A DNA stretch of 64,000 bases. Source: Dehalococcoidales bacterium. GTDB taxonomy: Bacteria > Chloroflexota > Dehalococcoidia > Dehalococcoidales > BS750m-G39. The stretch covers positions 42,511 through 106,510 of the forward strand of contig DAOULR010000004.1 of NCBI GenBank assembly GCA_034419075.1, given 5' to 3'. The notes beneath the pieces are model-generated. The model was not told where the DNA came from, made no database searches, and saw nothing but the letters and a program-made list of their open reading frames with translations. How positions within the stretch are numbered: position 1 is the first letter of the stretch; each line of letters opens with the position of its first letter. Below, piece after piece: positions 6,014 through 49,649 of the stretch. The position numbers were made by a program, and so were the translations under genes.

Positions 6014-6311
6014 TTTTCTCCTTTGGTTATAAGAATTTATTAGTGGCTGAGGTTGGTATTTGTTTTTAACTGGCATCACCTCCTTTGCCGCAAGTCTAGA
6101 TAAACAAAAAGGCACCAGCGACCACCACATTTTCTTCTGGCGGTTACCAGTGCTCTTTTCATCGGCCTCTATTGTTCCTTAAGGCTGGTTTATTTAAGGA
6201 GGATTTCATTATACCATTCGCTACGGCATTGTCAATGCTTTGAATTCAAGGTATTCCTCTATGTGCGCAATTGTGGTAGAATAGGGCGGTATTCTAGCGG
6301 GGGATAGTATT

Positions 6312-7292
6312 ATGGCCATCCCGAGAATGAGAAGAGGCAAAAAGGTCGCTCCCGAGGTAGCGCCGGAGGCGGGGAAACTCAACATTAATGCCATCACCGA
6401 GGACGAGCTGACCTGGATTAATATCGAGTCGCCGACCAAAGAGGAGACGGACTATCTGGCTGAGCACTACCCCTTCCACCCCCTCGACCTGGACGACTGC
6501 CTGAGCCGCATCCAACGGCCCAAGATAGACCGCTACGACGAATATCTTTTCCTGGTCTTTCACTTTCCCGTCTTCAGCCCCCAGGCCAGGGTGACCACAC
6601 CCAGCCAGGTTTCGGTTTTCATCGGGTCGAACTACCTTATCACCCTGCACAAGGGCGACCTGAAACCGCTGGTGAACCTGTTTAACCAGTGCCAGAGCGA
6701 AGAAGAGATAAGAAAAGAGCACTTCAGCCAGGGCTCGGGCTACCTGCTCTACCGTATCATCGACCGCCTGGTGGACTACTGCTTCCCCATACTCAATAAA
6801 ATAGGGGGCAACATCGAGGCGGTGGAGGACGCCATCTTCGCCGTGAAGGCACGGCGGACGGTGCGGGAAATCTCGACACTGCGGCGGGACGTTATCTCCT
6901 TCCGCCGCATTATCTGGCCGATGCGGGCGGTTATCGGTGGCATCGAGCCTAAAATCCGCCGCTATTCCAAGATGGACCTGGAGGTCTATTTTGGGGATAC
7001 CGTTGACCACCTGGACAAGATATGGGATGCCCTCGATGAATATAAAGAGATTATCGAAGGTCTGAATGATACCTACGATTCCCTGGCCAGCAACCGCACC
7101 AACGAGGTCATGCGCATGCTGACCGTTATCGCCACCATCCTGCTACCGCTGACGGTCATCGCCTCTATCTACGGGATGAATGTACCCCTGCCTTTCCAGG
7201 AATCGCACTATTCCTTCGTCATCGTCTTCTCCATCTGGGCGCTGGTGGTGGCTGGCATGCTCTATTTCTTCCGACGTCACCACTGGATATAA
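6312..7292 (+). CDS. corA: CorA-family magnesium/cobalt transporter
   Basis: 326 aa, two C-terminal TM helices with the signature YGMNV (GMN motif). Confidence 0.9.
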   Translation: MAIPRMRRGKKVAPEVAPEAGKLNINAITEDELTWINIESPTKEETDYLAEHYPFHPLDLDDCLSRIQRPKIDRYDEYLFLVFHFPVFSPQARVTTPSQVSVFIGSNYLITLHKGDLKPLVNLFNQCQSEEEIRKEHFSQGSGYLLYRIIDRLVDYCFPILNKIGGNIEAVEDAIFAVKARRTVREISTLRRDVISFRRIIWPMRAVIGGIEPKIRRYSKMDLEVYFGDTVDHLDKIWDALDEYKEIIEGLNDTYDSLASNRTNEVMRMLTVIATILLPLTVIASIYGMNVPLPFQESHYSFVIVFSIWALVVAGMLYFFRRHHWI

Positions 7293-7308
7293 CGGTTAAG
7301 ATATAAAG

Positions 7309-7974
7309 ATGAAGGTCTCGCACCGACTGCTTATTATCGCTGCCCTCTTTATTACCTGTTTTATCACCGCCAACATAATCTCGGTAAAGATGATAAGCCT
7401 GGGGCCCTTTATCGTCTTCGCCGGCGTTTTTATCTTCCCCATAAGCTACATCATCGGCGACGTGCTCACCGAGGTCTACGGCTACCGCATCGCCCGGCGG
7501 GTCATCTGGCTTGGTTTTGCCTGTAACCTTATCTTCGTTATCTTCGCCTGGATAGGGCAGATAGTGCCGGGAGCTTTGGGCTGGGAGCTGCAGGGCGCCT
7601 ACGAGAGCATACTGGGCTATACGCCGCGGCTGCTTCTGGCCTCGGTCTGCGGCTACCTGGTGGGGGAGTTCGCCAACTCCTACGTACTGGCCAAGATGAA
7701 GGTTTTCACCGAGGGACGCTGGCTCTGGAGCCGAACCATCGGTTCGACCATAATCGGGGAGGGGCTGGATACCGCCGTCTTTGCCACGTTGGCCACCGTC
7801 GGCACCCCCTTCTTCATGCCGACCGTAATCCTGAGCCAGTGGCTGGTGAAGGTGGTGGTGGAAGTCATCGCCACGCCCGCCACCTACGCCGTGGTCGGCT
7901 ACCTGAAGCGGAAGGAGGGCATCGACACCTACGACCGCCGCACCAATTTCAATCCCTTCCGCGTTCTAGGCTAG
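7309..7974 (+). CDS. yhhQ: Queuosine-precursor transporter (YhhQ/DUF165, VUT family)
   Basis: 221-aa polytopic membrane protein with FPISYIIGDVLTEVYGY, typical of YhhQ. Starts 16 nt after corA. Confidence 0.75.
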   Translation: MKVSHRLLIIAALFITCFITANIISVKMISLGPFIVFAGVFIFPISYIIGDVLTEVYGYRIARRVIWLGFACNLIFVIFAWIGQIVPGALGWELQGAYESILGYTPRLLLASVCGYLVGEFANSYVLAKMKVFTEGRWLWSRTIGSTIIGEGLDTAVFATLATVGTPFFMPTVILSQWLVKVVVEVIATPATYAVVGYLKRKEGIDTYDRRTNFNPFRVLG

Positions 7975-7995
7975 ACTATGGAGAGTGAGTGAAAG

Positions 7996-8763
7996 ATGAA
8001 GATTCGTTTTCTGGGGGCACACAACTGCGAGACAAAAGACACCAGGCTCATCAGCCTGCTGATTGACGATGTCTTGGCCATAGACGCTGGCGGGCTTAGC
8101 TCCGGTTTATCATTAGAGGCGCAGCATAAAATCGAGGCGGTGCTGCTCACCCACCAGCACTATGACCACGTGCGCGATATACCCACGCTGGGCATGAATC
8201 TTTTCCTGGGCGGCGCCAGTACCACCGTCTACTCCATACCGAAGGTGCTCGAGGTGGTGGAGGATAACCTGATGAACGAGGTGATTTACCCCGCTTTCCG
8301 CTTTAAAGTGCCCGATAAGCCGACCATTAAATTCAGCGTCGTCGAGCCAGATAAACCGCAAAAGATTCTGGGCTACGAAGTTTTAGCCGTTCCGGTAAAG
8401 CACAGCGTGCCCACCGTGGGCTATCAGCTCAGTGATGATAATAAGAGCTTTTTCTACACCTCGGATACGGGGCCAGGGCTGGCCGAGTGCTGGGAGAAGG
8501 TTTCGCCACAACTGCTCATCATCGAGGTCACCGGCTCCAATAGATTCATGGAGTGGGCGGCGGAGGGGGGTCACCTTACGCCCTCGCTGCTGCAGCAGGA
8601 GCTCGAGGACTTCAGGAAGCTCAAGGGCTACCTGCCCCGTACCATCATCGTGCACATGACCCCGCACCTGGAGAAGGAGATAGCGGAGGAGGTGGCCAAG
8701 GTGGCTAAAGCCCTGGACGCTTCCATAACCCTGGCCCGTGAGGGGCTGGAGATTAGCCTGTAA
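7996..8763 (+). CDS. Metallo-beta-lactamase-fold hydrolase (possibly phosphodiesterase-like)
   Basis: 255 aa with HxHxDH motif (THQHYDHVRD). Specific substrate not inferable. Confidence 0.7.
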   Translation: MKIRFLGAHNCETKDTRLISLLIDDVLAIDAGGLSSGLSLEAQHKIEAVLLTHQHYDHVRDIPTLGMNLFLGGASTTVYSIPKVLEVVEDNLMNEVIYPAFRFKVPDKPTIKFSVVEPDKPQKILGYEVLAVPVKHSVPTVGYQLSDDNKSFFYTSDTGPGLAECWEKVSPQLLIIEVTGSNRFMEWAAEGGHLTPSLLQQELEDFRKLKGYLPRTIIVHMTPHLEKEIAEEVAKVAKALDASITLAREGLEISL

Positions 8764-9334: not shown

Positions 9335-10099
9335 ATGGCTTTTAAGAAGATTCTGCTGGAGAAGAAAGAGGGGGCGGCCAAGATTACTATTAACCTGCCG
9401 CCATTGAACATCCTGGATATTCCTACCCTTGAGGAGATGAACCAGGCGCTGGCCGAGCTTAGGGAGGATGATGAGGTGAAGGTGGTGGCCATTACCGGCT
9501 CGGGAGAGAAGGCTTTCTCGGCGGGGGTAGCCGTCGGCGACCACCTGGGCGATAAGCTGCCCAAGATGGTCGAGGTCTTCCACAAGCTTTTCGTAGCGCT
9601 AATCGAGGTGGATAAGCCGACCATCGCCCTGGTCAATGGGGTGGCGCTGGGTGGGGGCTGTGAGATAGTGGCTGGCTGCGATATGGCGGTGGCCTCGGAT
9701 AAGGCGAAGCTGGGCCAGCCCGAGATTAAGCTGGGGGTCTATCCGCCGCCAGCATCGGTGCTCTTCCCCAGGATAATGGGGCGGCAGAAGGCCTTCGAGC
9801 TTATCCTTTCCGGGGACAGCATCAGCGCCCAGGAGGCGGAGAGAATCGGGCTGGTCAATAAGGTTGTCCCCGCCGCCGAATTCAATAAGGGGTGCGAGGA
9901 GTTTATCAAGCGTTTTACGTCCAATAGCGGGCTGACACTGACCCAGGCGCGGCGGGCGCTTTACCGTAACTTCGACCTGAATTTCTATGAGGCTCTGGAA
10001 GCCACCGGCGTCGATGCCACTATGGTCATGGCCGGGGAGAACAGCGTCGAGGGGCTGTCCGCCTTCCTGGAGAAGAGGAAGCCAATCTGGATAAGATAG
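9335..10099 (+). CDS. Enoyl-CoA hydratase/isomerase family protein (second crotonase paralog)
   Basis: 254 aa. GSGEKAFSAGVAV and GVALGGGCEIVAGCDM crotonase-fold motifs. Confidence 0.8.
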   Translation: MAFKKILLEKKEGAAKITINLPPLNILDIPTLEEMNQALAELREDDEVKVVAITGSGEKAFSAGVAVGDHLGDKLPKMVEVFHKLFVALIEVDKPTIALVNGVALGGGCEIVAGCDMAVASDKAKLGQPEIKLGVYPPPASVLFPRIMGRQKAFELILSGDSISAQEAERIGLVNKVVPAAEFNKGCEEFIKRFTSNSGLTLTQARRALYRNFDLNFYEALEATGVDATMVMAGENSVEGLSAFLEKRKPIWIR

Positions 10100-10121
10100 T
10101 CTTTTACGGAGGTAGAGGGAA

Positions 10122-11726
10122 GTGAAAGTTCTAACTACTGACCAGATGCACCAGCTGGAACAAGATGCCATCAAGTCCGGCATAACCATGGAAATGCTCA
10201 TGGAGAACGCGGGACAGGCCGTCGCCGACGAGGCGGCACGGATCCTGGAAGATATCCGACAGCAGCAGATTCTAATTCTCATCGGGCCGGGTAACAATGG
10301 TGGGGATGGGCTGGTCGCCGCCCGACACCTTCACGACGCGGGAGCCAAGGTCTTCGTCTATTTCTTCGGGCAGAGGCCGGGGCGCGACCCCATGCTCAAG
10401 CCGCTGCGGGAGCGCCGCATCAAGCGCATTGAGGCGGAAAAGGACGAAAACCTGGATGAATTGACCAAGCTGCTGGCTTCGGTCGATGCCGTTATCGACG
10501 CCCTCTTTGGCACGGGCACCACCCGACCCTTCTCCGGACTATTGCTGATGGTACTGGACAGGGTGAGGCGGGCCAAGATTAAACGCCCCGGTATAAAAAC
10601 TATCGCCCTGGATATACCCTCGGGGCTTAACGCCGACACCGGCGAAGCCGACCCAGGCTGTCTTTATGTAGATAACACTATCACTTTAGCTTTTCCCAAG
10701 CCAGGGCTGTTTAAGTTCCCCGGCGCTGAGAGAGTAGGGGAGATAAGCGTGGTCGATATCGGCCTGCCCGGATTTGTCGAGGAGAAAGCCGGCCCGGACT
10801 ACCTGGCCGACGAGTGGGCGAAATCGGTTTTACCCGAGCGCTCCCCTCAGGCCAACAAGGGTGATTTCGGCAAGGTGATAGTGCTGGCGGGCTCCATCAA
10901 CTACCTTGGTGCGCCCTATCTCGCCTGCAACGGCGCCATGAGGGTCGGCGCGGGCCTGGTGACACTGGCCGCCACCGGGCGTTTGCAGGCCATTTTAGCC
11001 AACAAGTTAACCGAGGTTACCTATCTGCCTTTACCGGAGGTACGTCCTTGGATTATTGCCCCCGAAGCCCTGCGGCTTCTCTTTCGTCAGTTCGAGAACT
11101 ATAACGTGCTGGTTATGGGCTGCGGCATGGGTCAGAACGAAGCGGTGGTCAGGCTCATCCGCTCTATCTTGCTTACCCACCCTAAGGCCAAGACAGCCAA
11201 ACCCAAGTTGCCGTCCGTGGTTCTCGATGCCGATGGCCTCAACGCCTTGGCCAAGGTGCCCAAATGGTGGGACCTGATGCCCGAGGACGCTATCCTTACC
11301 CCCCACCCTGGTGAGATGGCTAGGCTGACGGGGATGACAGTGGACGAGGTCCAGATCGACCGGCTGGAGCTGACCAAGAGGATGGCCTCGGAGTGGCACA
11401 AGACCATCGTCCTTAAGGGGGCGCATACCGTTATCGCCGCCCCCGACGGACGCACGCAGATTAGCCATATCGCCAATGCCGGGCTGGCGTCGGCGGGGAC
11501 GGGCGATGTCCTGGCTGGGGCTATTGGCGGGCTGCTGGCGCAAGGGCTTAGCCTCTTCGATGCCGCCGCCGCTGGTGTCTATGTCCACGGCATGGCGGGG
11601 GAGGTGGTCAAAGAGAGGCTGGGCGACGCGGGTATGGTGGCTTCCGACCTCCTGCCCGAATTGCCCCTAGTCATCAAGCGGTTAAAGGCCAGCCGCCCTA
11701 GCGAAGCTACCGAAGAGGCTGACTAA
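10122..11726 (+). CDS. nnr: Bifunctional NAD(P)H-hydrate repair enzyme (epimerase + ADP-dependent dehydratase)
   Basis: 534 aa, GTG start. N-terminal YjeF_N motif GPGNNGGDG. C-terminal carbohydrate-kinase-like domain with GTGDVLAG. Confidence 0.85.
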   Translation: MKVLTTDQMHQLEQDAIKSGITMEMLMENAGQAVADEAARILEDIRQQQILILIGPGNNGGDGLVAARHLHDAGAKVFVYFFGQRPGRDPMLKPLRERRIKRIEAEKDENLDELTKLLASVDAVIDALFGTGTTRPFSGLLLMVLDRVRRAKIKRPGIKTIALDIPSGLNADTGEADPGCLYVDNTITLAFPKPGLFKFPGAERVGEISVVDIGLPGFVEEKAGPDYLADEWAKSVLPERSPQANKGDFGKVIVLAGSINYLGAPYLACNGAMRVGAGLVTLAATGRLQAILANKLTEVTYLPLPEVRPWIIAPEALRLLFRQFENYNVLVMGCGMGQNEAVVRLIRSILLTHPKAKTAKPKLPSVVLDADGLNALAKVPKWWDLMPEDAILTPHPGEMARLTGMTVDEVQIDRLELTKRMASEWHKTIVLKGAHTVIAAPDGRTQISHIANAGLASAGTGDVLAGAIGGLLAQGLSLFDAAAAGVYVHGMAGEVVKERLGDAGMVASDLLPELPLVIKRLKASRPSEATEEAD

Positions 11727-12493
11727 TGCTGTTAGCGGTCGATATCGGTAACACCAGCACCAAGCTCGGCGTCTTCGAGGGCGAGAAGCTGCGCGCTACC
11801 TGGCACATGGCTACGGGCGTTCACCGCATGGCCGACGAGTACGCGGCGCTGCTCTTTAACCTGCTGCGCCAGCAGGGGCTGGAGACCACCGATATTAAGG
11901 CGGTGGCCATGTGTAGCGTGGTACCACCGCTGATTTCGACCTTTGAGGAACTTTTCGAGCGCTATTTTCACATCACGCCGCTGGTGGTGGGGGCGGGGGT
12001 AAAGACGGGGGTGAGCATCCGCATGGATAACCCCCGCGAGGTCGGCGCCGACCGAATCGCCGATGCCGCCGCCGCCCATAAGCTCTACGGGGGGCCGGTG
12101 ATTATCATCGACCTGGGCACGGCCACCACCTTCGGCATTGTTTCTAAGGAGGGGGACTACATCGGCGGTATTATCGCCACCGGTATCGCCACTGCCGCCG
12201 AGGCGCTCTTCACCCGTACGGCGCAGCTGCCCCGCGTGGAACTGGCCCAACCCAAGCACGTCATCGGCACCAATACGGTGGCGGCCATACAGTCGGGGAT
12301 TATCTACGGCTACGCCTCACTAGTGGAGGGGATGCTGGAACGCATCCACAAGGAGCTTGGGGGCAAGTTCAAGGTAGTGGCCACGGGTGGCTACGGCGAG
12401 CTTATCGCCAAGGTAACCGACGTCATCGATGTGGTCAACCCCGACCTGACCCTGATTGGACTGAGGCTCATCTACGAGATGAACAAGGGCTGA
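11726..12493 (+). CDS. coaX: Type III pantothenate kinase
   Basis: 255 aa. LAVDIGNT, GADR, DLGTATT motifs. ATG overlaps the nnr stop (TAATG). Confidence 0.85.
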   Translation: MLLAVDIGNTSTKLGVFEGEKLRATWHMATGVHRMADEYAALLFNLLRQQGLETTDIKAVAMCSVVPPLISTFEELFERYFHITPLVVGAGVKTGVSIRMDNPREVGADRIADAAAAHKLYGGPVIIIDLGTATTFGIVSKEGDYIGGIIATGIATAAEALFTRTAQLPRVELAQPKHVIGTNTVAAIQSGIIYGYASLVEGMLERIHKELGGKFKVVATGGYGELIAKVTDVIDVVNPDLTLIGLRLIYEMNKG

Positions 12494-12495
12494 AA

Positions 12496-13683
12496 ATGCT
12501 GAAAGAAAAAACCATAATACTGGGCATAACCGGCAGCATCGCCGCTTACAAGGCGGCTGACCTCGCCAGCCGTCTGACCAAGGGGGGGGCTAAGGTGGAG
12601 GTGGTTATGACCAAGGCCGCCACCTGGTTTATCGCCCCGCTCGCCCTAAGCAGCATTACGGGGCGGAGGGTGTTTACTGACGTGTTCGAGCCCGAGTCGG
12701 AGCGCAACATCGAGCATATCGCCCTGGCCGAGGCGGCCGACGCGGTGGTTATCGCCCCGGCGACGGCCTCCCTGATTGCCAAGCTGGCGGCGGGCATCGC
12801 CGACGAAATGCCAGCCCTAGTGGTGCTGGCGACCAAAGCCCCCATTGTCCTGGCGCCGGCCATGCACACCAACATGTACCTGAACCCCATAACGCAGGAG
12901 AACCTAGTCAAGCTTAGGGCCCGCGGCTTTACCGTCGTCGAGCCCGAGAGCGGGCGACTGGCTTCGGGTGGGGTGGGGCCGGGGCGGCTGGCCAATAGCG
13001 ATAAGATTATGGACACAATCAAGCAGGTTTTGGTGAGGAAAGGCGATTTGGTGGGTAAGAAGGTGGTGGTGACGGCGGGGGGAACTCAGGAACCTATCGA
13101 CCCGGTGAGGCATATCACCAACCCTTCGTCGGGGAAGATGGGCTACGCCATTGCCGAAGCCGCCCGCGACCGCGGCGCTGAGGTTGTATTGGTCAGCGCA
13201 CCCACTTCGCTGCCTCAACCCGCGGAGGTGAAGGTTATGCCGGTAAGGACTACCGCCGAAATGCAAAAAGCGGTATCTAAAGCGGTAACCAAAGCCGATG
13301 CCCTGATTATGGCGGCGGCGGTTACCGACTACCAGCCCAAGACCACATCCAAAGAAAAGCTCAAGAAAGATACCCCCGAGCTAAAGCTGGAACTGGTGAG
13401 AACGCCCGACATCCTGGCCGAGGTCAAGGGCGCTTTTATCAAGGTCGGTTTTGCTGCCGAGAGTAACGACATTATTGCCAACGCCAAGAAGAAGCTGAAG
13501 AATAAAAAGCTGGATATGATAGTGGCCAACGATATTACCGCCACCGACAGCGGCTTCGGCGTTGACACCAATAGGGTCATCATCATCGACAAGAAGGGTG
13601 GGGTGGAAGAACTGCCCTTATTAAGCAAGCGCGAGGTGGCCGAGCGGATACTGGACGGGGTGGTGGGGTTGGTCAAGCGCTAA
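12496..13683 (+). CDS. coaBC: Bifunctional phosphopantothenoylcysteine decarboxylase/synthetase
   Basis: 395 aa. N-terminal flavoprotein motif ILGITGSIAAYKA. C-terminal CoaB region (AAAVTDY). Confidence 0.85.
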   Translation: MLKEKTIILGITGSIAAYKAADLASRLTKGGAKVEVVMTKAATWFIAPLALSSITGRRVFTDVFEPESERNIEHIALAEAADAVVIAPATASLIAKLAAGIADEMPALVVLATKAPIVLAPAMHTNMYLNPITQENLVKLRARGFTVVEPESGRLASGGVGPGRLANSDKIMDTIKQVLVRKGDLVGKKVVVTAGGTQEPIDPVRHITNPSSGKMGYAIAEAARDRGAEVVLVSAPTSLPQPAEVKVMPVRTTAEMQKAVSKAVTKADALIMAAAVTDYQPKTTSKEKLKKDTPELKLELVRTPDILAEVKGAFIKVGFAAESNDIIANAKKKLKNKKLDMIVANDITATDSGFGVDTNRVIIIDKKGGVEELPLLSKREVAERILDGVVGLVKR

Positions 13684-13713
13684 TCGCCAGATTATTAAGG
13701 AGATACCCCCTTA

Positions 13714-16398
13714 ATGACCGAGTCGACTGAAATGCATAGCGACATGCCCAAAGCCTATGAGCCGCAAAAAGTAGAGCGGAAGTGGTACCAGTTCTGGCTG
13801 GATAAGGGCTATTTCCGGGCCGAGATAGACCCCAAGAAAAAGCCCTTCGTCGTCATCATGCCCCTGCCCAACGTCACCGGCGGGCTGCACATGGGACACG
13901 TCTGCTTCCTCACTCCCGAAGACGTGATGACCCGCTGGCACCGCATGAAGGGGGACTCCGCCCTCTGGCTGCCGGGCATCGACCACGCTGGCATCGCCGC
14001 CCAGGTGGTGGTGGAGCAACAGCTGGCCCAGGAGGGGACGGACCGCCATAAGATAGGCCGAGAGAAGTTCCTGGGAAGAATGTATAAGTGGGCTAAGGAA
14101 TGCCGCCAGACGATAACCGAGCAGGAGCAGCGGGTAGGGGCTTCCTGCGACTGGAGTCGTGAGAAATTTACCCTGGAGGAGGGGCCGAGCCGAGCGGTGC
14201 GCACCGCCTTCGTCAGGCTCTACGAAAAGGGCTTAATCTACCGCGGGGAGCGCATCATCAACTGGTGCCCGCGCTGCGCCACGGCGCTTTCCGACCTGGA
14301 GACCGACCACAAGGACATACAGGGGAACCTCTACTACGTGCGCTATCCTTTGGTAGGTAGCGACGAGTTCATCACCGTAGCCACCACCCGCCCCGAAACG
14401 ATACTGGGGGATACGGCGGTGGCCGTCAATCCCAAGGACAAGCGCTTCAAGAGGGTGGTGGGTAAGAAAGTCATACTGCCCGCCGTCAAGCGCGAGATAC
14501 CGATTATCGCTGATGAGGCCGTTGACCCCGAGTTCGGCACGGGGGCGGTAAAGATTACCCCCGCCCACGACCCCGTTGACTTCGAGGTCGCCCAGCGCCA
14601 CGACCTGCCGCTGGTAAATATACTCAACCCTGACGTCACCATGAACGAAAACGCGGGCAAATATCAGGGACTTGACCGCTTCAAATGCCGCGAGGCGATA
14701 GTCGCCGACCTGAAAAAATCGGGGCAGCTGGTCAAGATAGAGCCCTACGGGCATTCGGTGGGTCACTGCATGCGCTGCCAGACAATTATCGAGCCCACCG
14801 CCAGCCGCCAGTGGTTCATCAAGACCGAGCCGCTGGCCAAGCCGGCCATAGAGGCTGTCACCAGCGGGCGCATCAACATTATCCCCGAGCGCTTCACCAA
14901 GGTCTACCTCAACTGGATGGAGAACATCCGCGACTGGTGTATCAGCCGCCAGCTCTGGTGGGGTCATAGAATACCCGTCTGGTACTGCGCGAAATGCGGC
15001 GAGCTGACGGTATCGGTGGACGAGGTCAAGAAGTGCGCCCACTGCGGCTCGGCCAAAGTGGAGCAGGACCCCGATGTGCTCGATACCTGGTTCTCCTCGG
15101 CGCTCTGGACTCACTCCACACTGGGCTGGCCCGACGACACCGAAGACCTGCGCTATTTCTACCCGACCACGGTGATGGAGACGGGCTACGACATCCTCTT
15201 TTTCTGGGTAGCCAGAATGATTATGATGGGGCTGGAGGACGTGGGCGATATCCCCTTCAGCACCGTTTACCTGCACGGTTTGTTGCGGGACGAGAAGGGA
15301 GAGAAGATGAGCAAGGTGAGGGGCAACGTGCTCGACCCGCTGGACACTATGGATAAATATGGCACCGACGCCCTGCGCTTTGCCCTTTCTACCGACGTCT
15401 CGCCGGGCAACGATATCAACCTGACCAAGGCCAGGCTGGAGGCGGGGCGAAACTTTGCCAATAAGCTCTGGAACGCCGCCCGCTTCGTGGTGAGAAGCCT
15501 TGAGAAAGAAGATATCGCTCTCGAAATCAAGCAGGAGGGGCTGGGGGTGGAGGAGCGCTGGATATTGAGCCGCCTTAGCCGCACCAACGCCAGCGTCGTC
15601 AAGCTGATGGATAACTTCCAGTTCGGCGAAGGCTTAAAGCAATTGCACGACTTTATCTGGGGGGAGTTCTGCGACTGGTATATCGAGTTCGCCAAGATTC
15701 GCCTCTCTGCTGGCGATAGTTCGCCATTACCAGTCCTGGTCTATGTGCTGGAAAACTCGCTGCGGCTGCTGCACCCCTTTATGCCCTTCATTACCGAGGA
15801 ATTGTGGCAGCAGCTAAAACAGCGCCTGCCCGCCGACTGGCAGAAGACTGACTCCATAATGATTGCCGCCTACCCTGAGGCCGATACAAAAGCCGTTGAC
15901 GCCGAGGCGGAGAAAGTCATGGAAGCCATAATTGATATAGTCCACAATATTCGTAATGTACGGGCGGAACACAAAGTGGAGGTCAACAAGTGGGTAGAGG
16001 CTGAGGTCTATGCTGGAGAGCTTACCTCTGCTATTGCCGAACATTCAACGACAATTCAGACGCTGGCCCGGGCAAGGCCGGTTAGTTTCCACGATATCCG
16101 TCAGGAAGGCGTTCAAATCCCGTCGGAGGGAAATGATAGAATAATAGTGCTTCCAAACGCGGTAACAGTCAGGATTCCTATGGAGAGCATGGTCGACCTC
16201 AATGCCGAGCGCAAGCGTCTTGAAGGTGAAATTGCCCGTAGCCAGGCATTAATTGCTTCGCTGGAAAGCAGGCTCAAGGATAAAGCCTTCCTGTCCAAAG
16301 CGCCATCGACGGTGGTGGCTAAAGAGCGGGAAAAGCTGGCCGAGCGAAAGGATAAGCTGAAGAGGCTGAGAGAGCAGCTGGGGCGCTTTAAGTCTTGA
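13714..16398 (+). CDS. valS: Valine--tRNA ligase
   Basis: 894 aa. Class I HIGH variant PNVTGGLHMGH, KMSKS as EKMSKVRGN, C-terminal coiled coil. Confidence 0.95.
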   Translation: MTESTEMHSDMPKAYEPQKVERKWYQFWLDKGYFRAEIDPKKKPFVVIMPLPNVTGGLHMGHVCFLTPEDVMTRWHRMKGDSALWLPGIDHAGIAAQVVVEQQLAQEGTDRHKIGREKFLGRMYKWAKECRQTITEQEQRVGASCDWSREKFTLEEGPSRAVRTAFVRLYEKGLIYRGERIINWCPRCATALSDLETDHKDIQGNLYYVRYPLVGSDEFITVATTRPETILGDTAVAVNPKDKRFKRVVGKKVILPAVKREIPIIADEAVDPEFGTGAVKITPAHDPVDFEVAQRHDLPLVNILNPDVTMNENAGKYQGLDRFKCREAIVADLKKSGQLVKIEPYGHSVGHCMRCQTIIEPTASRQWFIKTEPLAKPAIEAVTSGRINIIPERFTKVYLNWMENIRDWCISRQLWWGHRIPVWYCAKCGELTVSVDEVKKCAHCGSAKVEQDPDVLDTWFSSALWTHSTLGWPDDTEDLRYFYPTTVMETGYDILFFWVARMIMMGLEDVGDIPFSTVYLHGLLRDEKGEKMSKVRGNVLDPLDTMDKYGTDALRFALSTDVSPGNDINLTKARLEAGRNFANKLWNAARFVVRSLEKEDIALEIKQEGLGVEERWILSRLSRTNASVVKLMDNFQFGEGLKQLHDFIWGEFCDWYIEFAKIRLSAGDSSPLPVLVYVLENSLRLLHPFMPFITEELWQQLKQRLPADWQKTDSIMIAAYPEADTKAVDAEAEKVMEAIIDIVHNIRNVRAEHKVEVNKWVEAEVYAGELTSAIAEHSTTIQTLARARPVSFHDIRQEGVQIPSEGNDRIIVLPNAVTVRIPMESMVDLNAERKRLEGEIARSQALIASLESRLKDKAFLSKAPSTVVAKEREKLAERKDKLKRLREQLGRFKS

Positions 16399-16402
16399 AA
16401 GC

Positions 16403-16437
16403 AAACCGCCCTCCCCGCTTAGAGGAGAGCGGTTTTT
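16403..16437. terminator. Hairpin terminator between convergent valS and the NSS-transporter operon
   Basis: AAACCGCCCTCC-loop-GGAGAGCGGTTTTT: GC-rich stem with a T-run on the plus strand. Sits between two convergent units. Confidence 0.6.
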
Positions 16438-16465
16438 CGCTTTTTGGGGCTTTATCGAGTGGGGT

Positions 16466-16573
16466 TTAGTCTTCCCACTTACCGCCTTTACCGATACGGG
16501 TGAAGCAGAAAACCAAGCCGACGATAAACACCAAACTCATAACAATCGTAGTGACTATGGCCGCTGTTGTCAT
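16466..16573 (-). CDS. 35-aa single-TM micro-protein, candidate NSS-transporter small subunit (MetS-like)
   Basis: Hand translation: MTTAAIVTTIVMSLVFIVGLVFCFTRIGKGGKWED. Its ATG overlaps the transporter stop (ATGA, 16570-16573). Below the ORF-track length cutoff. Confidence 0.55.
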   Translation of the reverse strand: MTTAAIVTTIVMSLVFIVGLVFCFTRIGKGGKWED

Positions 16574-18105
16574 TTCTCCTTCACCTCCTTGGCTAGCTTA
16601 GGCCCTCGGGTCTTGGCGGCTTGCAGCCAGAAGCTAAAGCCCAGCGTGGCGACCAGTATTATCCATATGATATGAGAGCCGTTTAGTGGCCCGATCATAT
16701 AGCCGCCGTAGCCGGGATCGGGTATGTCGTTCTTGAAGCCGCCGTAGATGACCACAAAGAGCAGTCCGGCGGGCACGACGACTTTAATCAGCCAGTCGAA
16801 CCAGGCTCCGACCTTGAAGTCCGAGGTCGCGTTGATGTGCTCTCTGAGCTTCTTGGCGCCGTAGAACCAGCCGACGACAATACAGGCCAGGGCGCCGGTT
16901 ATAAGTAGTCCGTAGAAGGCGGTAGCTCTATCTACCATATCTAACCAGTAGAGACCGCCACCGGTACAGTAAAGGAGACCGATAACGAGGCCGAGAGCAC
17001 AGATAAAGGCGGTGACTTTGGCCCGACCCCAGCCGAATTTATCCCGCAGCGGGGCGATAACACCACCGTAGGTCAGGAAGAAGGCCGAATCTATGCCCAG
17101 GAAGAAGAAGCAGACGAAGAAGATGACCCCCGTAACGGCCGCCATAGCCGGCATCATGGAGATTGCCACCGGGTAGGTAACAAAAGCCAGTCCTAAACCG
17201 GAAGCGCTGACCTCGCCCACCGGGATAGACAGCGCCTGCATGATGAAGCCGACGATACTGAATACGGCAAAGCCAGCGAAGAAGCTGGTAGCGCAGTTGG
17301 TAAACGAGGTGATGAAGGCGTTGTTGTTGATGTCAGCTTTCTTGGCGACAAAGCTGCCGTAGGCGAACATCCCGGCCATGCCCAGTGAAAGAGTAAAGGC
17401 AATCTGGCTGAAGGCCCCGAACCATAAATCGGGATTGCTCAGGGCACCCCAATCCGGCGCCAGATAGTAGTTGAGCCCGTCAACTGCTCCTGGTAGCGTC
17501 AACCCCCTTATCAGCAGGACAATGAGCAAAGCCCAGGGGATGATTACCGTCCAGACGGCGACCCTGCCAATTACCTTGGCCCCTTTGAACATGATGAAGA
17601 ACAGGATGATCCAGACTCCTGCTAGGGCGCCGACTATGGGCCACTGCAGACCGCCGAGAGCGGTGGGTCCGGAGGAAAGGTTCAGTACGTCCCCGAAGAA
17701 ATAACCGGCGGCTCCGGACGCGCCGGCCTCACCTGTTCCCCAGGCAACGGTAGCCGAGCTAGCCGCATAGTTCAGGGACCAGGATATGACCACGGAGTAG
17801 TAGGTGACGATGAGGAAGGCAACGAAGACGGGCCACCAGCCCAGCCATTCCCACTTCTTGCTGATGCCTTCGAATACGCCGGGAGAGCCTTTCTGGAAAA
17901 GGCGCCCCATGCCGAACTCCATCATCATCCAGGGGATGCCCAGGATAATAAGGCCGATAATCCAGGCAATCAAAAAGGCTCCGCCACCATATTCATAGGT
18001 CAAATAGGGGAATCGCCAGACATTGCCCAGACCTATTGCGGAGCCCATCGCGGCGAACAGGAAAAAAGCCCTGCCGCCCCATCTTTCCCTTGTTAGTTCC
18101 GCCAA
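16570..18105 (-). CDS. Sodium-dependent neurotransmitter:sodium symporter (NSS/SNF) family transporter
   Basis: 511 aa, TTG start behind AAAGGAGG. Signature GLGNVWRFPY. About 12 TM segments. Confidence 0.9.
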   Translation of the reverse strand: MAELTRERWGGRAFFLFAAMGSAIGLGNVWRFPYLTYEYGGGAFLIAWIIGLIILGIPWMMMEFGMGRLFQKGSPGVFEGISKKWEWLGWWPVFVAFLIVTYYSVVISWSLNYAASSATVAWGTGEAGASGAAGYFFGDVLNLSSGPTALGGLQWPIVGALAGVWIILFFIMFKGAKVIGRVAVWTVIIPWALLIVLLIRGLTLPGAVDGLNYYLAPDWGALSNPDLWFGAFSQIAFTLSLGMAGMFAYGSFVAKKADINNNAFITSFTNCATSFFAGFAVFSIVGFIMQALSIPVGEVSASGLGLAFVTYPVAISMMPAMAAVTGVIFFVCFFFLGIDSAFFLTYGGVIAPLRDKFGWGRAKVTAFICALGLVIGLLYCTGGGLYWLDMVDRATAFYGLLITGALACIVVGWFYGAKKLREHINATSDFKVGAWFDWLIKVVVPAGLLFVVIYGGFKNDIPDPGYGGYMIGPLNGSHIIWIILVATLGFSFWLQAAKTRGPKLAKEVKEK

Positions 18106-25936: not shown

Positions 25937-26308
25937 ATGGGTATGAGTCACCGAAGAGGCAATAAAATAGTCCTTTTGGCAAGCACCCTGATAATAGTGT
26001 GTCTTTTTATGCCCGCCTTATTCATCTCATGCGAACCAGGCGGTGAACCTATAATTGAGAACCAGACCAGTCAAGATGTTAACATTTACATAATAGATGT
26101 TCTTAGTGATGGCACTTTGGGAGAAGCAATAGATTACGGAGTCATTTTAGCCCATAGTACCAAGCAGATAGCTAGTATCATCTTTATAAAACCCGAATGG
26201 GTGTATAGAATTCAAGCAAAAGATCCATCAGGTAAAGTCGTGTTTTCGCATGATTACAATTATTATGACCTCGAAGAGATATCTTGGAGGATAACGATAC
26301 CGCCATAG
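25937..26308 (+). CDS. Orphan putative lipoprotein (123 aa), AT-rich
   Basis: Signal/lipobox-like LFISC after a hydrophobic segment. No recognisable domain. Composition clearly AT-richer than its flanks. Confidence 0.5.
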   Translation: MGMSHRRGNKIVLLASTLIIVCLFMPALFISCEPGGEPIIENQTSQDVNIYIIDVLSDGTLGEAIDYGVILAHSTKQIASIIFIKPEWVYRIQAKDPSGKVVFSHDYNYYDLEEISWRITIPP

Positions 26309-36573: not shown

Positions 36574-37215
36574 CTATTTAATTAGCTGAAGTGCCCTTCT
36601 AGGCCTTATTACTTCGAGATGATATCTTTCCCTTAATTCTTTCCCGAGGTTTAGAAGGTCTCCATCCATAGTTACAAAATACGCTGCCTTCTGTAATATT
36701 GCGGTTATAACCAGTATTGCATCTTGAGTTCTTAGCGTAGGATAGAGAAAGACTAGGGAAGAGTAGATGTCAAAGTAATCTGCTGTATCAGATGGGGTAG
36801 TTGTCGATATTATTTCAATTTTACGCTCGAATAAAGTATCGAATCCCTTCGAAGCTAATTCATAAAGCTTTCTTGAGAGTTCCTGTGGGAAACTAACTTC
36901 TTTTGTCTCCCTTTTATAGCTCCATCTAGAGATTGGTATTCCTTTCGTGAACATAATAATACTGCGAACTTCATCTCTTATGCCTGAAAATACTTCTGAT
37001 AAGGAAAGCTCGGTGACTAAAAGTTGCTGGTTGTTATCTGAAAGTTCCAACGCTCTATCAATGAAATCACACGATTCCTTGTATCGGTTTCTGTAGACGT
37101 CCCCAAATTCTTGGGCTAAATGGAACTCCTGTGTCACGAATTCCATAACCTTGTTGGTCATCAGCCAGTGGACTATTACGTTTGTATCTATGAGCCACTT
37201 GTGTATAGTAGCCAT
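36574..37215 (-). CDS. Enlarged PIN-like domain protein (213 aa)
   Basis: N-terminal LIDTNVIVHWL (first PIN acidic residue). Further acidic positions in VTELSLSEV, TQDAILV, TMDGD. About 80 aa longer than a typical VapC. AT-rich. Confidence 0.6.
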   Translation of the reverse strand: MATIHKWLIDTNVIVHWLMTNKVMEFVTQEFHLAQEFGDVYRNRYKESCDFIDRALELSDNNQQLLVTELSLSEVFSGIRDEVRSIIMFTKGIPISRWSYKRETKEVSFPQELSRKLYELASKGFDTLFERKIEIISTTTPSDTADYFDIYSSLVFLYPTLRTQDAILVITAILQKAAYFVTMDGDLLNLGKELRERYHLEVIRPRRALQLIK

Positions 37216-37578: not shown

Positions 37579-38070
37579 CTAATCCCCTTTCCCCTCCCCA
37601 CCCTCAACCTCCTCAGCAATGCCGATGCGCTTCACCGAAAGGGGCACATAGTTGACCATCTTGCACTCAATCAGGTCTTTAAGCTCCTTCTCGGCGGGAG
37701 TAAGCGCCGCCTTTTCCGTCTTGACCTCGATGAAGTCAACGCCCTCGCCGTACTTGATGCCGACGAAGTCAACGGGCTCGCCGCCGAGATAAAAGAGACG
37801 GTCATAATGCGTCAGCTCCAGAGTGGCCAATAGCTCGTTGAGCTTACCCGCCCTGACGGCCTCGCTGGAGGTAATAGATTTGAGGACATCGCGGGGCAGG
37901 CTTTCCAAAATGCGCTGAATCTCCCGCACCGAGTCCGCCGAAGCCAGAGCGAAGCGCAGCTTTTCGGCCAGCTGGTCAACGTCGGTGGCGGGGGCCTTCC
38001 TCATCCGAAAGATTAAGACTATGATTACAATGACGAGGAGGAAGATTACGGCCAGGAGGGCGTATTCCAT
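37579..38070 (-). CDS. Membrane-anchored endonuclease-like protein related to archaeal Holliday-junction resolvase (COG4741-like)
   Basis: 163 aa. N-terminal TM helix. C-terminal GGEPVDFVGIKYGEGVDFIEVKTEKAALTPAEKELKDLI, with an E-x-K core as recalled for COG4741. Confidence 0.55.
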   Translation of the reverse strand: MEYALLAVIFLLVIVIIVLIFRMRKAPATDVDQLAEKLRFALASADSVREIQRILESLPRDVLKSITSSEAVRAGKLNELLATLELTHYDRLFYLGGEPVDFVGIKYGEGVDFIEVKTEKAALTPAEKELKDLIECKMVNYVPLSVKRIGIAEEVEGGEGKGD

Positions 38071-41970: not shown

Positions 41971-43176
41971 ATGAAGCAAGCAGTTAAGGTAGTCGTTTTT
42001 CTGGTGATTCTGGCATTGATTATGGTGCCGCTGGCGGCCTGCGACCTGGAGCAGGATGGGCAGGTGGCGCAGGTGGAGCAGGGTCCAGCAGGGCCACAGG
42101 GGCCGGCAGGGCCAGCGGGTCCAGCGGGGCCAAGAGGATCGCAGGGTCCAGCGGGGCCACAGGGACCGCAGGGAGAGCCAGGGCCAGCGGGGCCTCAGGG
42201 ACCAGCGGGGGCGCAGGGAGCCATCGGGCCACAGGGTGCCACTGGGCTAATGGGACCTCCAGGTCCAGCGGGAGAGGCAGGGGCGGCGGGGACTTCGTTG
42301 AACCCGATGCAGATTGCCCTGCTGCGGTGGTGGGAAGCCAATGAGACGGGCATAACCTACAGCGTGGGCGCGAGCACCAACCCCGTGGGCATCTGCTTCG
42401 ACGGCGAGAACATCTGGACCGCCAATAATGCCAGTGCTAATGTGACCAAGCTTAAAGCCATCGACGGCACCGAGTGTGCCGGCAGTCCCTACGCTGTGGG
42501 TAATGCCCCCAACGGTATATGCTTCGACGGGAAATACATCTGGACTGCCAATTACGCCAGCAATAATGTAACCAAGCTCCTGGCCAGCGACGGCAGCTTG
42601 GTCGGCACCTATCCCGTCACCGAACCCCTGGCCATCTGCTTCGACGGCGCTAACATCTGGGTCACCCAATACTCCAGCACTAATGTCCACAAGCTGAGAC
42701 CCAGCGACGGTGTTGTGCTGGGTACCTATACTGTGGGCTACGACCCCTATGGAATCTGCTTCGACGGCGAGAACATCTGGGTCTCTGGTAACGGCCCTGA
42801 CACGGTAACCAAGCTTAGAGCCAGCGACGGTGCTTGGCTCGGCACCTACAATGTGGGCGACTCTCCCCACGACATATGTTTCGACGGGGAGAACATCTGG
42901 GTAACCAATCAAGTAGACGGCACAGTGACCAAGCTGAGAGCCAGCGACGGCAGCTTGGTCGGCACCTACAATGTGGGCACCAATCCCATGTACATCTGCT
43001 TCGACGGTGAGAACATCTGGGTAGTTAACCACAACGACAATACGGTAACCAAGCTGAAAGCCAGCGACGGTAGCCCGGTCGGCACCTACAACGTCGGTAC
43101 TAACCCTCACGGCATCTGCTTCGATGGTGCCAATATCTGGGTTACTAATAGCGATGGTACGGTAAGCAAGCTCTAG
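41971..43176 (+). CDS. Collagen-like lipoprotein with C-terminal seven-blade beta-propeller (NHL/Vgb-like repeats)
   Basis: 401 aa. Lipobox signal MVPLAAC. 23 Gly-X-Y triplets (nt ~42082-42291). Seven ~40-aa repeats P..ICFDG.NIWV.N....VTKL.ASDGS.VGTYNVG. Confidence 0.85.
42376..43173 (+). repeat. Seven tandem ~120-bp coding repeats (propeller blades)
   Basis: ATCTGCTTCGACGG..A.ATCTGG recurs at 42391, 42517, 42634, 42754, 42874, 42994 and 43114 (spacing 126, 117, 120, 120, 120, 120). Confidence 0.85.
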
Positions 43177-43200
43177 GAGGGATTTGAGAGAAAGTCAACC

Positions 43201-43230
43201 GAGAGCCAGGGTTTTTAGGCCCTGGCTCTC
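43201..43230. terminator. Hairpin terminator between convergent genes
   Basis: GAGAGCCAGGG-TTTTTAG-GCCCTGGCTCTC: perfect 11-12-bp stem. Confidence 0.6.
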
Positions 43231-43274
43231 AGCTTATTCGGTTTTGATTTAGGGCCGCTTGATTAACAGGCGGT

Positions 43275-44126
43275 TTATTCTTTGCTGCGGACGGCCTTAA
43301 CGACTCCGGTCGCCACCAGGGCCGCGCCCACGACTATGGCAATCCAGAAGCCATAGACCGATAGCCAAAGTATGAGGCTGCGATTGCCTTGGGCATCATC
43401 AACCAGCTCGTCTATGGTATCGTCGTCGAAGACTATGCTGGAAATATAGTAGGGCATCTTGGTTTCGGGCCCGACGACCATACTGTAGGTCGAATTGCTC
43501 ATGGTGTAAACGGTGGTACCGGTTACCGGCTCCACCTTCAGGCTGATGTCTATGTCCAAAACCTGAGGGATACCGGTCCCTTCCTGGGCGCCAATGTCCA
43601 GGTCCTGCTCGCTGATGGCGAAGTCGTAGACGGTCAGGCCGTGGAATTCTTCTTCACCGGTAAAGGCGGCTTCCAGGGGACGCCCGGCACTGAGAATCCA
43701 TATGGAGTAGCTTTCCTTTTCTAAATCGGAAGGGAAGCAGAACTGGCCGCTACGTGGCATACCATCAGCTTGGTTGGCCACAAACGCCCGGGTAGAGCGG
43801 TCAACACTCATCTCCCCATAGGCACCAAAATCGGGCAGTTCCATGCCAGCCAGGGCGTGGGTGCAGGTAACCGTCTCACTGATGGTGAGCACGTTGTCCT
43901 GGACGCCCATTGCATCTTGCAATCGCTGTACGAGCACCGGAATTTCGTCCAGCGTTTGGGTATCGGGGTTGAGCACGTAATAGGTGCCCTCGAAGTTGAT
44001 GTCTCTGTGGTGGTCTGCGGGGATTTTGACCATGCCGGGGAAGATGGCCAACAGCCAGACCAGGGCGAAAACGACCAGGACCAGACCAATGACGGTCAGG
44101 CTCAGGCTCCCACCTTTCATTCTCAT
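43275..44126 (-). CDS. DUF3068-like membrane-anchored protein
   Basis: 283 aa, N- and C-terminal TM helices flanking a large extracytoplasmic domain. N-terminal pattern (FPGMVKIPADHHRDINFEGTY) recalled from DUF3068. Assignment tentative. Confidence 0.5.
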   Translation of the reverse strand: MRMKGGSLSLTVIGLVLVVFALVWLLAIFPGMVKIPADHHRDINFEGTYYVLNPDTQTLDEIPVLVQRLQDAMGVQDNVLTISETVTCTHALAGMELPDFGAYGEMSVDRSTRAFVANQADGMPRSGQFCFPSDLEKESYSIWILSAGRPLEAAFTGEEEFHGLTVYDFAISEQDLDIGAQEGTGIPQVLDIDISLKVEPVTGTTVYTMSNSTYSMVVGPETKMPYYISSIVFDDDTIDELVDDAQGNRSLILWLSVYGFWIAIVVGAALVATGVVKAVRSKE

Positions 44127-47190: not shown

Positions 47191-47232
47191 CCCAGCAGCG
47201 TGTTTGTATTTAGAGACGGCTAAGGAGGCGAG

Positions 47233-48027
47233 ATGAAGCGAGCGAGCAAGATAATCGTCTTTTTGTTAGTTATCGCCTTAGTCCTGGTGCCGCTGACGGC
47301 CTGCGAGCTGTCGGTAGGACCGCAGGGAGAGCCGGGGCCGCAGGGGGCAGCGGGACCGCAGGGAGAAGAAGGGCCACCGGGGCCTCGGGGCCGAACGGGC
47401 GAGCCAGGGCCGGCGGGTCCGGCAGGGGCGGCGGGGCCACAGGGAGAGCAGGGGCCAGCGGGGCCGGCGGGATCACAGGGGCCGCAGGGCAGCCCGGGGG
47501 TGGAGGGGCCGCAGATAGTGGCTACCTGGGCGAATGTGGCGACGAAAGGGTCCGGCGGCGAGTTCGGCGATTTCAGCATGGAGTCCCCTTATTCGGGGCC
47601 GTTTGCAATAACCGATGTTACCGTGTGGGCCTACGGGGAGGGAAGCTATCCGCCGCCTTACGGGCCGGCCTGGGTGCGGATTAAAGGCTCGGGCTTCGAC
47701 CCCGGGGCTATAGTGACCTTGACCATCTGTGAGGACGATTACGTCCTCGACCTGTATATCGCAGATTACGTGGTCGGTGACGGCATACCGCTTGACGATA
47801 TCCCTGACTACATAGTCGCTAACGAATGCGGCGCCTTCGAGGTTTTCACCTACATGCCCGATATCTGGCCGGAGCTGGGTGCGCAGACTGCGGTGGTCCA
47901 CACCTCGGTGAAGGCTTACGTTAGCGGCATACTGCAGGCTTCCTGGGCGTTAGAAGTCTGGGATTTCAGTTCATTTGATGAGGCTTCTTACAATCACTTG
48001 ATGATGCTGATGGATGGGGAAGGCTAA
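47233..48027 (+). CDS. Collagen-like lipoprotein paralog 1 (264 aa)
   Basis: Lipobox VPLTAC. 22 Gly-X-Y triplets (47317-47514). Neck [10 protein letters not shown]. Conserved core [12 protein letters not shown]...LTICEDD...[17 protein letters not shown]...[17 protein letters not shown]. Confidence 0.85.
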
Positions 48028-48059
48028 CCCTGTTAATGAGGAACCTGAGGATTGTTTAA

Positions 48060-48830
<771 letters not shown>

Positions 48831-48857
48831 TCTTTTAGGATTGTTTAAGGAGGCGAG

Positions 48858-49649
48858 ATGAAGCGAGCGAGCAAGATAATCGTCTTTCTGGTTATGATAG
48901 CCTTAATTCTGGTGCTGCTGGCGGCATGCCAGGGGCCGCGGGGGCCGCAGGGCGAGACGGGGCCGGTGGGGCCGACGGGGCCGATAGGCGACACGGGGCC
49001 GCAGGGGCCTCCGGGTCGAGCCGGTGAGACGGGGCCGCAGGGCGACCCGGGGCTGGCGGGGCCGGCGGGGCCCCAGGGGGAGGTGGGGCCGGTAGGGGAG
49101 CAGGGTCTGCCCGGCGACCAGGGACCGCAGATAGCGGCTACTTGGGCCAATATTTGGTGGGATGACCAGGCTTATATGTATCTTTTAATCGACCGCGTCA
49201 TCGGCCCCTTCGATATCGTGGACGTTACCGTCAGGGATTATGATTTCAGCGAACCCCAGACGGGGATTCACCCTAGCTGGGCATGCTGGGTGCGGATTAA
49301 GGGCTCGGGCTTCAATCCCGGAGAGATGGTGGTGCTGACTATCTGTGAAAGCGACACTGTCCTCAACCTCTATAGCTACGATTACAATATCGACGATGGT
49401 TACCTGACCGATATTGCCGACTTAATCACCGCCGACGAATGCGGCGCCTTCGAGGTCTTCACCTACATGCCCAATATCTGGCCGGAGCTGGTTACCGACC
49501 AGGAGGGCTATGCGGTGGTGGAACACACCGCGGTGAAGGCCTACGTCGACGGCGTGCTGCAGGCTTCCTGGCCGTTGGACGTCTGGAACGACGCAATCGG
49601 AGCCTTTGATTGGGATATCTACTACTACCTGTTAGACATTATAATGTAA
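48858..49649 (+). CDS. Collagen-like lipoprotein paralog 3 (263 aa)
   Basis: Lipobox LLAAC. 22 triplets (48933-49130). Same neck and core motifs ([39 protein letters not shown]). Confidence 0.85.

Follow-up and report, generated by a model that had tools for sequence, protein, structure and literature searches.

The contig DAOULR010000004.1 of a Dehalococcoidales bacterium (Chloroflexota; assembly GCA_034419075.1) contains a gene whose product joins a lipoprotein signal peptide, a collagen-like run of Gly-X-Y triplets and a C-terminal repeat domain. Downstream of it lie three tandem paralogues, below called the trio, with the same type of signal and stalk and a different head. What is such a protein for: does it bind something outside the cell, act as an enzyme, build the envelope, or is it a remnant of a phage? 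We analysed a window of 64,000 nucleotides containing these genes (positions 42,511 to 106,510 of the forward strand of the contig; all coordinates of the locus are those of the window). The reading that we prefer, at a probability of roughly 0.55, is that the propeller gene encodes a lipid-anchored, collagen-stalked and probably homotrimeric surface-binding protein.

Anatomy of the propeller gene

The propeller open reading frame (ORF; Table 1) is preceded by a GGGAG-type ribosome-binding site, and a scan for sigma-70 promoters upstream of it produced no match. Its product starts with a charged n-region (MKQAVK) followed by a 14-residue hydrophobic stretch and the lipobox LAAC with Cys24. This agrees with the lipoprotein pattern that we used, [LVI][ASTVI][GAS]C with a positively charged n-region and a hydrophobic h-region. 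The C-terminus reads NSDGTVSKL, and the LPXTG sorting signal is absent. The acidic spacer is kept in the orthologue from a related metagenome-assembled genome (MAG), L002, and a similar spacer is present in the chimeric protein P0240 described below.

The stalk counts 23 triplets if the terminal GTS is excluded and 24 if it is included. Proline occupies 15 of the 24 X positions, and Pfam Collagen (PF01391) matches the stalk with 57.5 bits against a cut-off of 27.2 (E = 1.1e-15). The collagen triple helix rises by 0.286 nm per residue; at this rise the 72 residues of the stalk would extend over about 20.6 nm, and the 66 residues of the trio stalks over about 18.9 nm. In orthologues the collagen part is 60-79% identical and its glycine periodicity is unbroken by frame shifts. 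That the periodicity is kept at such a divergence argues for a true triple helix, not a loose linker.

The head contains seven repeats of about 40 residues centred on ICFDG.NIW and starting at residues 141, 183, 222, 262, 302, 342 and 382, and the DNA encoding it has a tandem period of 120 bp (Tandem Repeats Finder). Long antisense ORFs lie within the propeller and collagen coding DNA (42247-43110, 47220-47579, 48056-48355 and 48845-49150, all on the minus strand). Most likely they are artefacts of repetitive, stop-poor sequence and not genes.

Fold and conservation of the head

An AlphaFold2 model of residues 105-401, built with 101 relatives, has a mean pLDDT of 94.2 and a pTM of 0.90, and its 28 strands form seven four-stranded blades. 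The original prediction, made by a model from the sequence of the window, had proposed a head of seven ~40-residue repeats; the repeats, the DNA period and the modelled blades all agree with it. Judging by the strand order, the last blade would take its fourth, outer strand from the N-terminus of the head (ITYS, 128-131), which closes the propeller in the "velcro" manner. The neck is modelled as a short helix only, with low confidence.

The best solved match is 1l0q, the surface-layer YVTN propeller of Methanosarcina mazei, found both by Foldseek (E = 2.5e-18, TMq 0.80) and by a sequence search against PDB (E = 1.4e-14). Further Foldseek matches in PDB include the lyase Vgb (2z2o, TM 0.81) and YncE (3vgz). 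The profile search of the propeller that had been suggested together with the original prediction gave a weak pass of Pfam NHL on the whole protein (26.3 bits, cut-off 20). The YVTN repeat model TIGR02276 was not reached (13.7 bits, cut-off 27.85), Pfam PQQ_2 stayed below its cut-off on the head, and so did the NCBIfam model VgbA, which is considered below. Judged from these scores, the head appears to be a repeat family related to YVTN and distinct from it, without a curated model in the libraries scanned.

Across 102 relatives each blade conserves one and the same set of scaffold residues, which includes the pattern GTF.VG..P.G, and the tryptophan at construct position 16, in the neck, is almost invariant. 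No blade-specific conserved residues were found in this set. The positions between VG and P, the residue x of P-x-G and five residues after W-V-x-N are conserved in at most 30% of the relatives. By canonical propeller topology, these variable positions would be the D-A and B-C loops of the "top" face, the face where Vgb has its active site, and the conserved FDG and RASDG turns would belong to the bottom face, at which the neck joins the propeller from the N-terminal side.

Orthologues in related genomes

A scan of 185,579 species genomes identified syntenic orthologues of the propeller gene in four Dehalococcoidales MAGs (L001, L002, L004 and L054). On one side the gene is flanked by genes encoding UvrB, a Holliday-resolvase-like protein, RuvA, RuvC, YebC, AcpS and a HAD hydrolase, and on the other side by those for a membrane protein of the PorA/DUF3068 family, a TGS-domain GTPase and UvrC. 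L001 and L002 are the closest of the MAGs, and most of their matched flanking genes are 77-97% identical; a small ORF (72%) and, in L001, the PorA-like gene (52%) fall below this range. In L004 the identity of the flanks is 64-92%. For the propeller gene itself it is only 53-69% in the syntenic MAGs. This divergence is unequally distributed: in comparison with L002 and two paralogues of L001, identity is 74-81% in the scaffold, 83-94% in the neck and 21-45% in the predicted top-face loops. From the context, the synteny and these identities by class, the gene is therefore judged to be cellular, conserved in position and fast-evolving on one face. The G+C content of the head is 56.4%, equal to that of the window, and recent horizontal transfer was rejected on this basis.

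The locus is plastic, a hot spot at which such surface genes are gained and lost. The trio is absent from L001 and L004, and L001 has two tandem collagen-propeller paralogues (5711-8137) with 27 and 26 triplets.

The trio and exchange of heads

The trio lies 4,057 bp downstream of the propeller gene. Its three signals have the same length as that of the propeller protein, Cys24 is present in all of them, and they align with it without gaps at 58-67% identity of protein and 72-76% of DNA. Two further lipoproteins are predicted in the window (930-1802 on the minus and 25937-26308 on the plus strand), and their signals are unrelated, so the likeness points to common descent of the N-terminal module, not to generic composition. 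Both the resemblance of the signals and the modular anatomy of lipid anchor, collagen and propeller, as originally proposed, are thus upheld, the N-terminal module being common to four genes.

The stalks of the trio have 22, 14+8 and 22 triplets, with one extra residue between the two runs of the middle gene. The count of 23 triplets against 22 given in the original prediction is right if the terminal GTS is left out and for two genes of the trio, and does not describe the interrupted middle gene. The AlphaFold2 model of the trio head has a pLDDT of 52 and is too poor for classification or for a structural search. This head defines a small family, 15 proteins in 5.8 billion, all of them with Cys24; the stalks have about 21-23 triplets in 14 of the 15 and 18 in one, and interruptions of the types 14+8 and 10+11 recur. 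L002 contains a trio with 22, 14+8 and 21 triplets (14154-16582). The genes form three distinct orthologue groups whose order is kept in L002, and the one-residue interruption of the middle gene is conserved. Three adjacent chains of equal triplet count resemble the A, B and C chains of the C1q heterotrimer.

The protein P0240, from sediment metagenomes, has the signal type of the propeller gene, an acidic spacer and 22 triplets ending in GPMGPPGPPG, followed by a head of the trio type. Its locus (1605-2396 of L102) has a gene neighbourhood different from that in the window. P0240 adjoins genes of an MTTB methyltransferase and a B12-binding protein; the metagenome is from a sulfate-methane transition zone. 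Because this chimera joins the N-terminus of the propeller gene to the trio head, it supports, as direct evidence, an exchange of heads between the modules. The exchangeable head of the original prediction gains from it, and also from phage contigs in which neck+propeller tips are swapped behind shared N-termini.

Stalk length across relatives

A spacer of fixed length had also been proposed. At the syntenic locus the propeller orthologues carry 22, 24, 24, 26, 27 and 30 triplets, and other Dehalococcoidia relatives of the propeller protein have 34, 21, 19, 12, 12, 5 or 0. One 12-triplet orthologue is from a Dehalogenimonas MAG (L005), and in the case without triplets (P0120) the lipobox is joined almost directly to the propeller. 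In the wider family, collagen of 5-93 triplets stands directly ahead of the neck in 99 of the 225 protein clusters listed from two homologue searches. Hence the length is fixed in the trio-head family and roughly so within this genome, and it is not fixed in propeller proteins.

The wider neck+propeller family

When 1.84 billion representatives were searched by phmmer with the neck and propeller, there were 23,531 matches at E <= 1e-3, including giant multi-propeller proteins; with the limit set to E <= 1e-30 the count was 1,927 clusters. The scan of species genomes had matches in Acidobacteriota, Verrucomicrobiota, Planctomycetota and Chloroflexota, among others. In many bacterial relatives a signal comes first, next a CBM96, CBM5/12 or discoidin domain or an unnamed "FTYQGRL" domain, and after it collagen, the neck and the propeller. 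CBM96 is by definition an alginate-binding module (PMC9971899). The FTYQG(R/K)L domain, of about 180 residues, follows the signal peptide in many relatives (for example P0003, P0004 and P0018) and occupies the place that CBM96 or collagen has in others; P0003, which was scanned as the single example, had no Pfam match over this domain. Among viral proteins the fold is matched best by two "collagen triple helix repeat" proteins of Klosneuvirus KNV1 (BFVD A0A1V0SKR9 and A0A1V0SKV3), the closest viral structural match having 30% identity and a TMq of 0.86. These proteins could come from a real giant-virus fibre or from bacterial DNA contaminating the viral bin.

IMG/VR contains 41 loci that encode relatives. 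A 900-residue protein of the contig L063, which also has genes for a portal and an internal virion protein, matches tail-fibre families of PHROG over residues ~140-600 and carries the neck and propeller at its end. The contig L065 contains genes for a terminase, a protease and a major head protein, and its 347-residue neck+propeller protein shares the N-terminus with the product of the preceding gene. In L062 (5791-8888) three tandem paralogues of about 340 residues begin in the manner of tail fibres (P.DWN..H.I) and continue with the neck and a Cys-rich propeller (CCFDG), and they are followed by an ORF of more than 2,500 codons (9385-16887). L062 is a putative viral contig: among five of its proteins tested, including the last paralogue, there was no function-assigned PHROG match, and one weak match was to a family of unknown function. 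Taken together, these proteins show the neck+propeller module recurring at the distal end of fibres.

Neighbouring genes

The PorA-like gene, convergent with the propeller gene, neighbours it in all four syntenic MAGs at 52-93% identity. It diverges unevenly, with 93% in L002 and 52% in L001 and L054, and in L002 the order of the two genes is swapped. Beyond the flanking genes listed above there are the trio and a putative XerC-like recombinase, read by eye. Immediately downstream of ruvA and ruvC, and on their strand, is the gene at 37579-38070 (minus strand). Its product of 163 residues has a hydrophobic segment at the N-terminus and a relative of the archaeal Holliday-junction resolvase domain (PF10107, 27 bits); conservation in the related MAGs is 92-95%. 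An ORF of 213 codons at 36574-37215 (minus strand) has no match in Pfam or PHROG and no counterpart in L001, L002 or L004.

Table 1. Features of the propeller gene, its neighbours and the trio (coordinates of the 64,000-nucleotide window)
Feature	Position	Strand	Remarks
Propeller ORF	41971-43176	+	ATG start; 401 aa
Lipoprotein signal peptide, residues 1-24	41971..42042	+	Lipobox L-A-A-C; putative lipidated Cys24 = residue 1 of the mature protein
Acidic spacer, 13 residues, from lipid anchor to collagen run	42043..42081	+	
Collagen-like stalk, residues 38-109	42082..42297	+	24 Gly-X-Y triplets without interruption
Neck, residues 110-127 (18 aa)	42298..42351	+	Conserved linker ahead of the propeller, also in relatives with collagen stalks or CBMs and in phage tail-fibre relatives
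Seven-blade beta-propeller head, residues 128-401	42352..43173	+	AlphaFold2, Foldseek, sequence repeats
Propeller sequence repeats (approximate)	42364-42489, 42490-42606, 42607-42726, 42727-42846, 42847-42966, 42967-43086, 43087-43173	+	
Stop codon	43174..43176	+	
Two terminator-like hairpins between the convergent propeller and PorA-like genes	43197..43276	.	Consensus matches only; 3 found vs 1.2 expected
PorA/DUF3068-family membrane protein	43275..44126	-	Pfam PF11271, E = 1.4e-28
Three tandem lipobox-collagen paralogues (the trio)	47233-48027, 48069-48830, 48858-49649	+	Same signal type; different ~170-aa beta-rich head

A proposed surface-binding protein and its alternatives

The preferred reading implies the following sequence of events. 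The protein would be exported by the Sec pathway, after which Cys24 would be lipidated and the signal peptide removed. Three chains may then zip their 24 triplets into a triple helix of about 20 nm, with nucleation from the C-terminal neck and head. The stalk would keep three seven-blade propellers off the membrane, with the variable face about 20 nm away, plus the spacer. With the neck entering the conserved bottom face, the variable top face with its D-A and B-C loops would point outward and serve as the ligand-binding surface. The ligand could be a polysaccharide, a particle or the surface of another cell; since the top face diverges fast, ligands may differ between lineages or phages may exert selection.

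Several points weigh against this scheme. The lipidation is predicted from the lipobox motif, and the outward orientation of the top face from canonical propeller topology. No recognised trimerisation domain was found in the propeller protein. Dehalococcoidia relatives with 5, 12 or 0 triplets indicate that the head can work without a stalk, possibly as a monomer. Finally, many relatives bear CBM96, CBM5/12 or discoidin domains, as carbohydrate-active enzymes do.

This last point bears on the possibility that the head is a surface-displayed enzyme, a polysaccharide lyase or hydrolase, a lactonase or a Vgb-like lyase, stalked to act on extracellular polymers. The fold class does include the Vgb lyase, whose family model VgbA (NCBIfam NF000022) matches with E = 1.5e-19, and catalytic propellers occur in phage tailspikes (PMC12632334). 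The score, however, is 70.3 bits against a cut-off of 600. The Vgb residues H228, E268, H270 and E284, which we take to be catalytic and metal-binding (their numbering agrees with the 2z2n alignment), have as blade-for-blade equivalents M340, N378, H380 and S394. H228 and H270 align to x of the blade motif P-x-G-I, and E268 stands two residues before it; at the position of H380 orthologues have H, R or M. Blade-specific conservation is lacking in the 102 relatives, and the channel-lining P-x-G position is among those conserved in at most 30% of them, whereas the K1F enzyme concentrates mutation-intolerant positions in the central channel (PMC12632334). A Vgb or lactonase identity, which the original prediction had raised along with SMP-30, was rejected on the low family score and the non-conserved Vgb residues; a displayed enzyme of any of these kinds seems to us improbable. 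Most likely the head serves for binding, not for catalysis.

About as unlikely is a purely structural role, in which the protein and the trio would be lipid-anchored pillars of set height for an S-layer-like coat, and the propellers units of its lattice or canopy, not receptors. It would fit with the origin of the closest solved relative (1l0q) from an archaeal surface-layer protein, with the conserved bottom face and neck, and with the 22-24 triplets of the four genes and the near-constant stalks of the trio-head family. Against it speak the stalks of 0-34 triplets in propeller orthologues and the absence of the trio from L001 and L004, and rapid divergence of exposed loops is unlike lattice contacts. 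Slightly less weight still is given to a monomeric lipoprotein in which the Gly-X-Y run is an extended proline-rich tether without a triple helix. The lack of an identifiable trimerisation domain, the low-confidence AlphaFold2 neck, and the relatives with 5-12 triplets or with the lipobox directly on the propeller (P0120) would suit such a tether. The stalk itself argues otherwise: glycine stands at every third position over 72 residues without interruption, this is kept in orthologues despite a change of 21-40% of the sequence, and proline fills most X positions. Moreover, the same propeller occurs on phage tail-fibre proteins, and phage tail fibres are a trimeric class. The kinship with phage fibres raises a last alternative, that of a prophage or phage-remnant tail-fibre gene, for which homologous neck+propeller tips in phage contigs and PHROG tail-fibre matches (to E = 1.6e-21) could be adduced. 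Yet all PHROG matches above 33 bits that were listed, mostly to tail-fibre families, fall in the collagen part (residues ~20-113), and the two matches in the propeller score low and are to families without an assigned function. A lipoprotein signal is present, the flanks are housekeeping genes with no phage genes among them, the position is the same in four MAGs, and the G+C content is that of the window. On context, signal peptide and composition this identity was rejected, and its chance is very slight; the original prediction had named phage derivation as an observation that would speak against it, and the data do not bear it out.

Comparison with known systems

The surface-binding protein that we propose recalls the "lollipop" proteins Scl1 and Scl2 of Streptococcus pyogenes, BclA of Bacillus anthracis and Lcl of Legionella, which likewise display a globular head on a Gly-X-Y stalk devoid of hydroxyproline. 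The stalk matches the NCBIfam models of SclB, Lcl and SclA far below the family cut-offs (54 vs 325 for NF038329, used for LPXTG-anchored adhesins of the Scl1/Scl2 type, and 47 vs 500). The anchor differs, being an N-terminal lipobox instead of a C-terminal LPXTG or an exosporium attachment, and so does the head, which is a C-terminal seven-blade propeller instead of the V domain or C1q-like jelly roll of the Scl, BclA and Lcl group.

As to the head, the M. mazei protein 1l0q is also a cell-surface protein with a seven-blade propeller of ~40-residue repeats. However, the identity is only 22%, and the archaeal protein has PKD domains and lacks a collagen stalk or lipid anchor. Vgb (2z2n/2z2o) has a seven-blade propeller of equal size with a shared blade motif (TM 0.81, rmsd 2.1). 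It differs in the metal-binding and catalytic residues and in the family score, as described above, and is a soluble intracellular enzyme. The phage fibre tips of L062, L063 and L065 have a homologous neck (Q-I/V-A-x-L-R-W-Y-x-x-N) and CFDG propeller with 41-46% identity, placed likewise at the C-terminal distal end. Their N-termini serve for virion attachment or as a fibre shaft, in place of the lipid anchor and collagen, and portal, terminase and capsid genes are nearby. In the K1F endosialidase tailspike, a homotrimer, each chain has a beta-propeller domain on a trimeric stalk, and the constrained residues are in the central channel (PMC12632334).

A similar logic is seen, by analogy, in animal class A scavenger receptors including MARCO, in collectins and in C1q, where an N-terminal membrane or cluster anchor is followed by a collagen stalk, a short neck and a trimeric C-terminal recognition head. 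These defence collagens differ in having unrelated heads (SRCR, C-type lectin, gC1q) and in their dependence on hydroxyproline, and they are not evolutionarily related to the bacterial protein.

Taken singly, bacterial surface proteins with collagen, YVTN propellers and lipoproteins are familiar. The literature searched (collagen with propeller, lipoprotein, Dehalococcoidia and Chloroflexi) contained no report of the three combined, and in a 2022 review of collagen-like proteins from prokaryotes there is no mention of propellers or lipoproteins. No report of a neck+propeller module shared by cells and phage fibres was found either, no search having been aimed at that pairing.

Implications

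Most of what is known about collagen-like proteins of bacteria comes from pathogens, in which the anchor is LPXTG or the exosporium. The protein considered here would be a lipid-anchored form with a propeller head, in a class that is environmentally important and hard to culture and whose surface biology is, to our knowledge, poorly known. Engineers of recombinant collagen may also take an interest in the stalk, which is short, free of hydroxyproline and followed by a C-terminal folding unit.

A bolder and doubtful proposal is that the four lipobox-collagen genes constitute a surface system specific to Dehalococcoidia, composed of trimeric pillars of near-constant height (~19-21 nm) with a lipid anchor and interchangeable heads, including a phage-type receptor-binding propeller. 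If so, the cell would own a "tail-fibre-like" organelle for attachment to partner cells or particles, or else a decoy or target in an arms race with phages, and the three tandem paralogues could assemble as a C1q-like heterotrimer.

For the family as a whole, the 1,927 clusters link secreted CBM-collagen proteins, giant-virus collagen proteins and the tips of phage tail fibres. Once established, the ligand of the propeller would annotate thousands of proteins and would show a receptor-binding module common to cells and phages.

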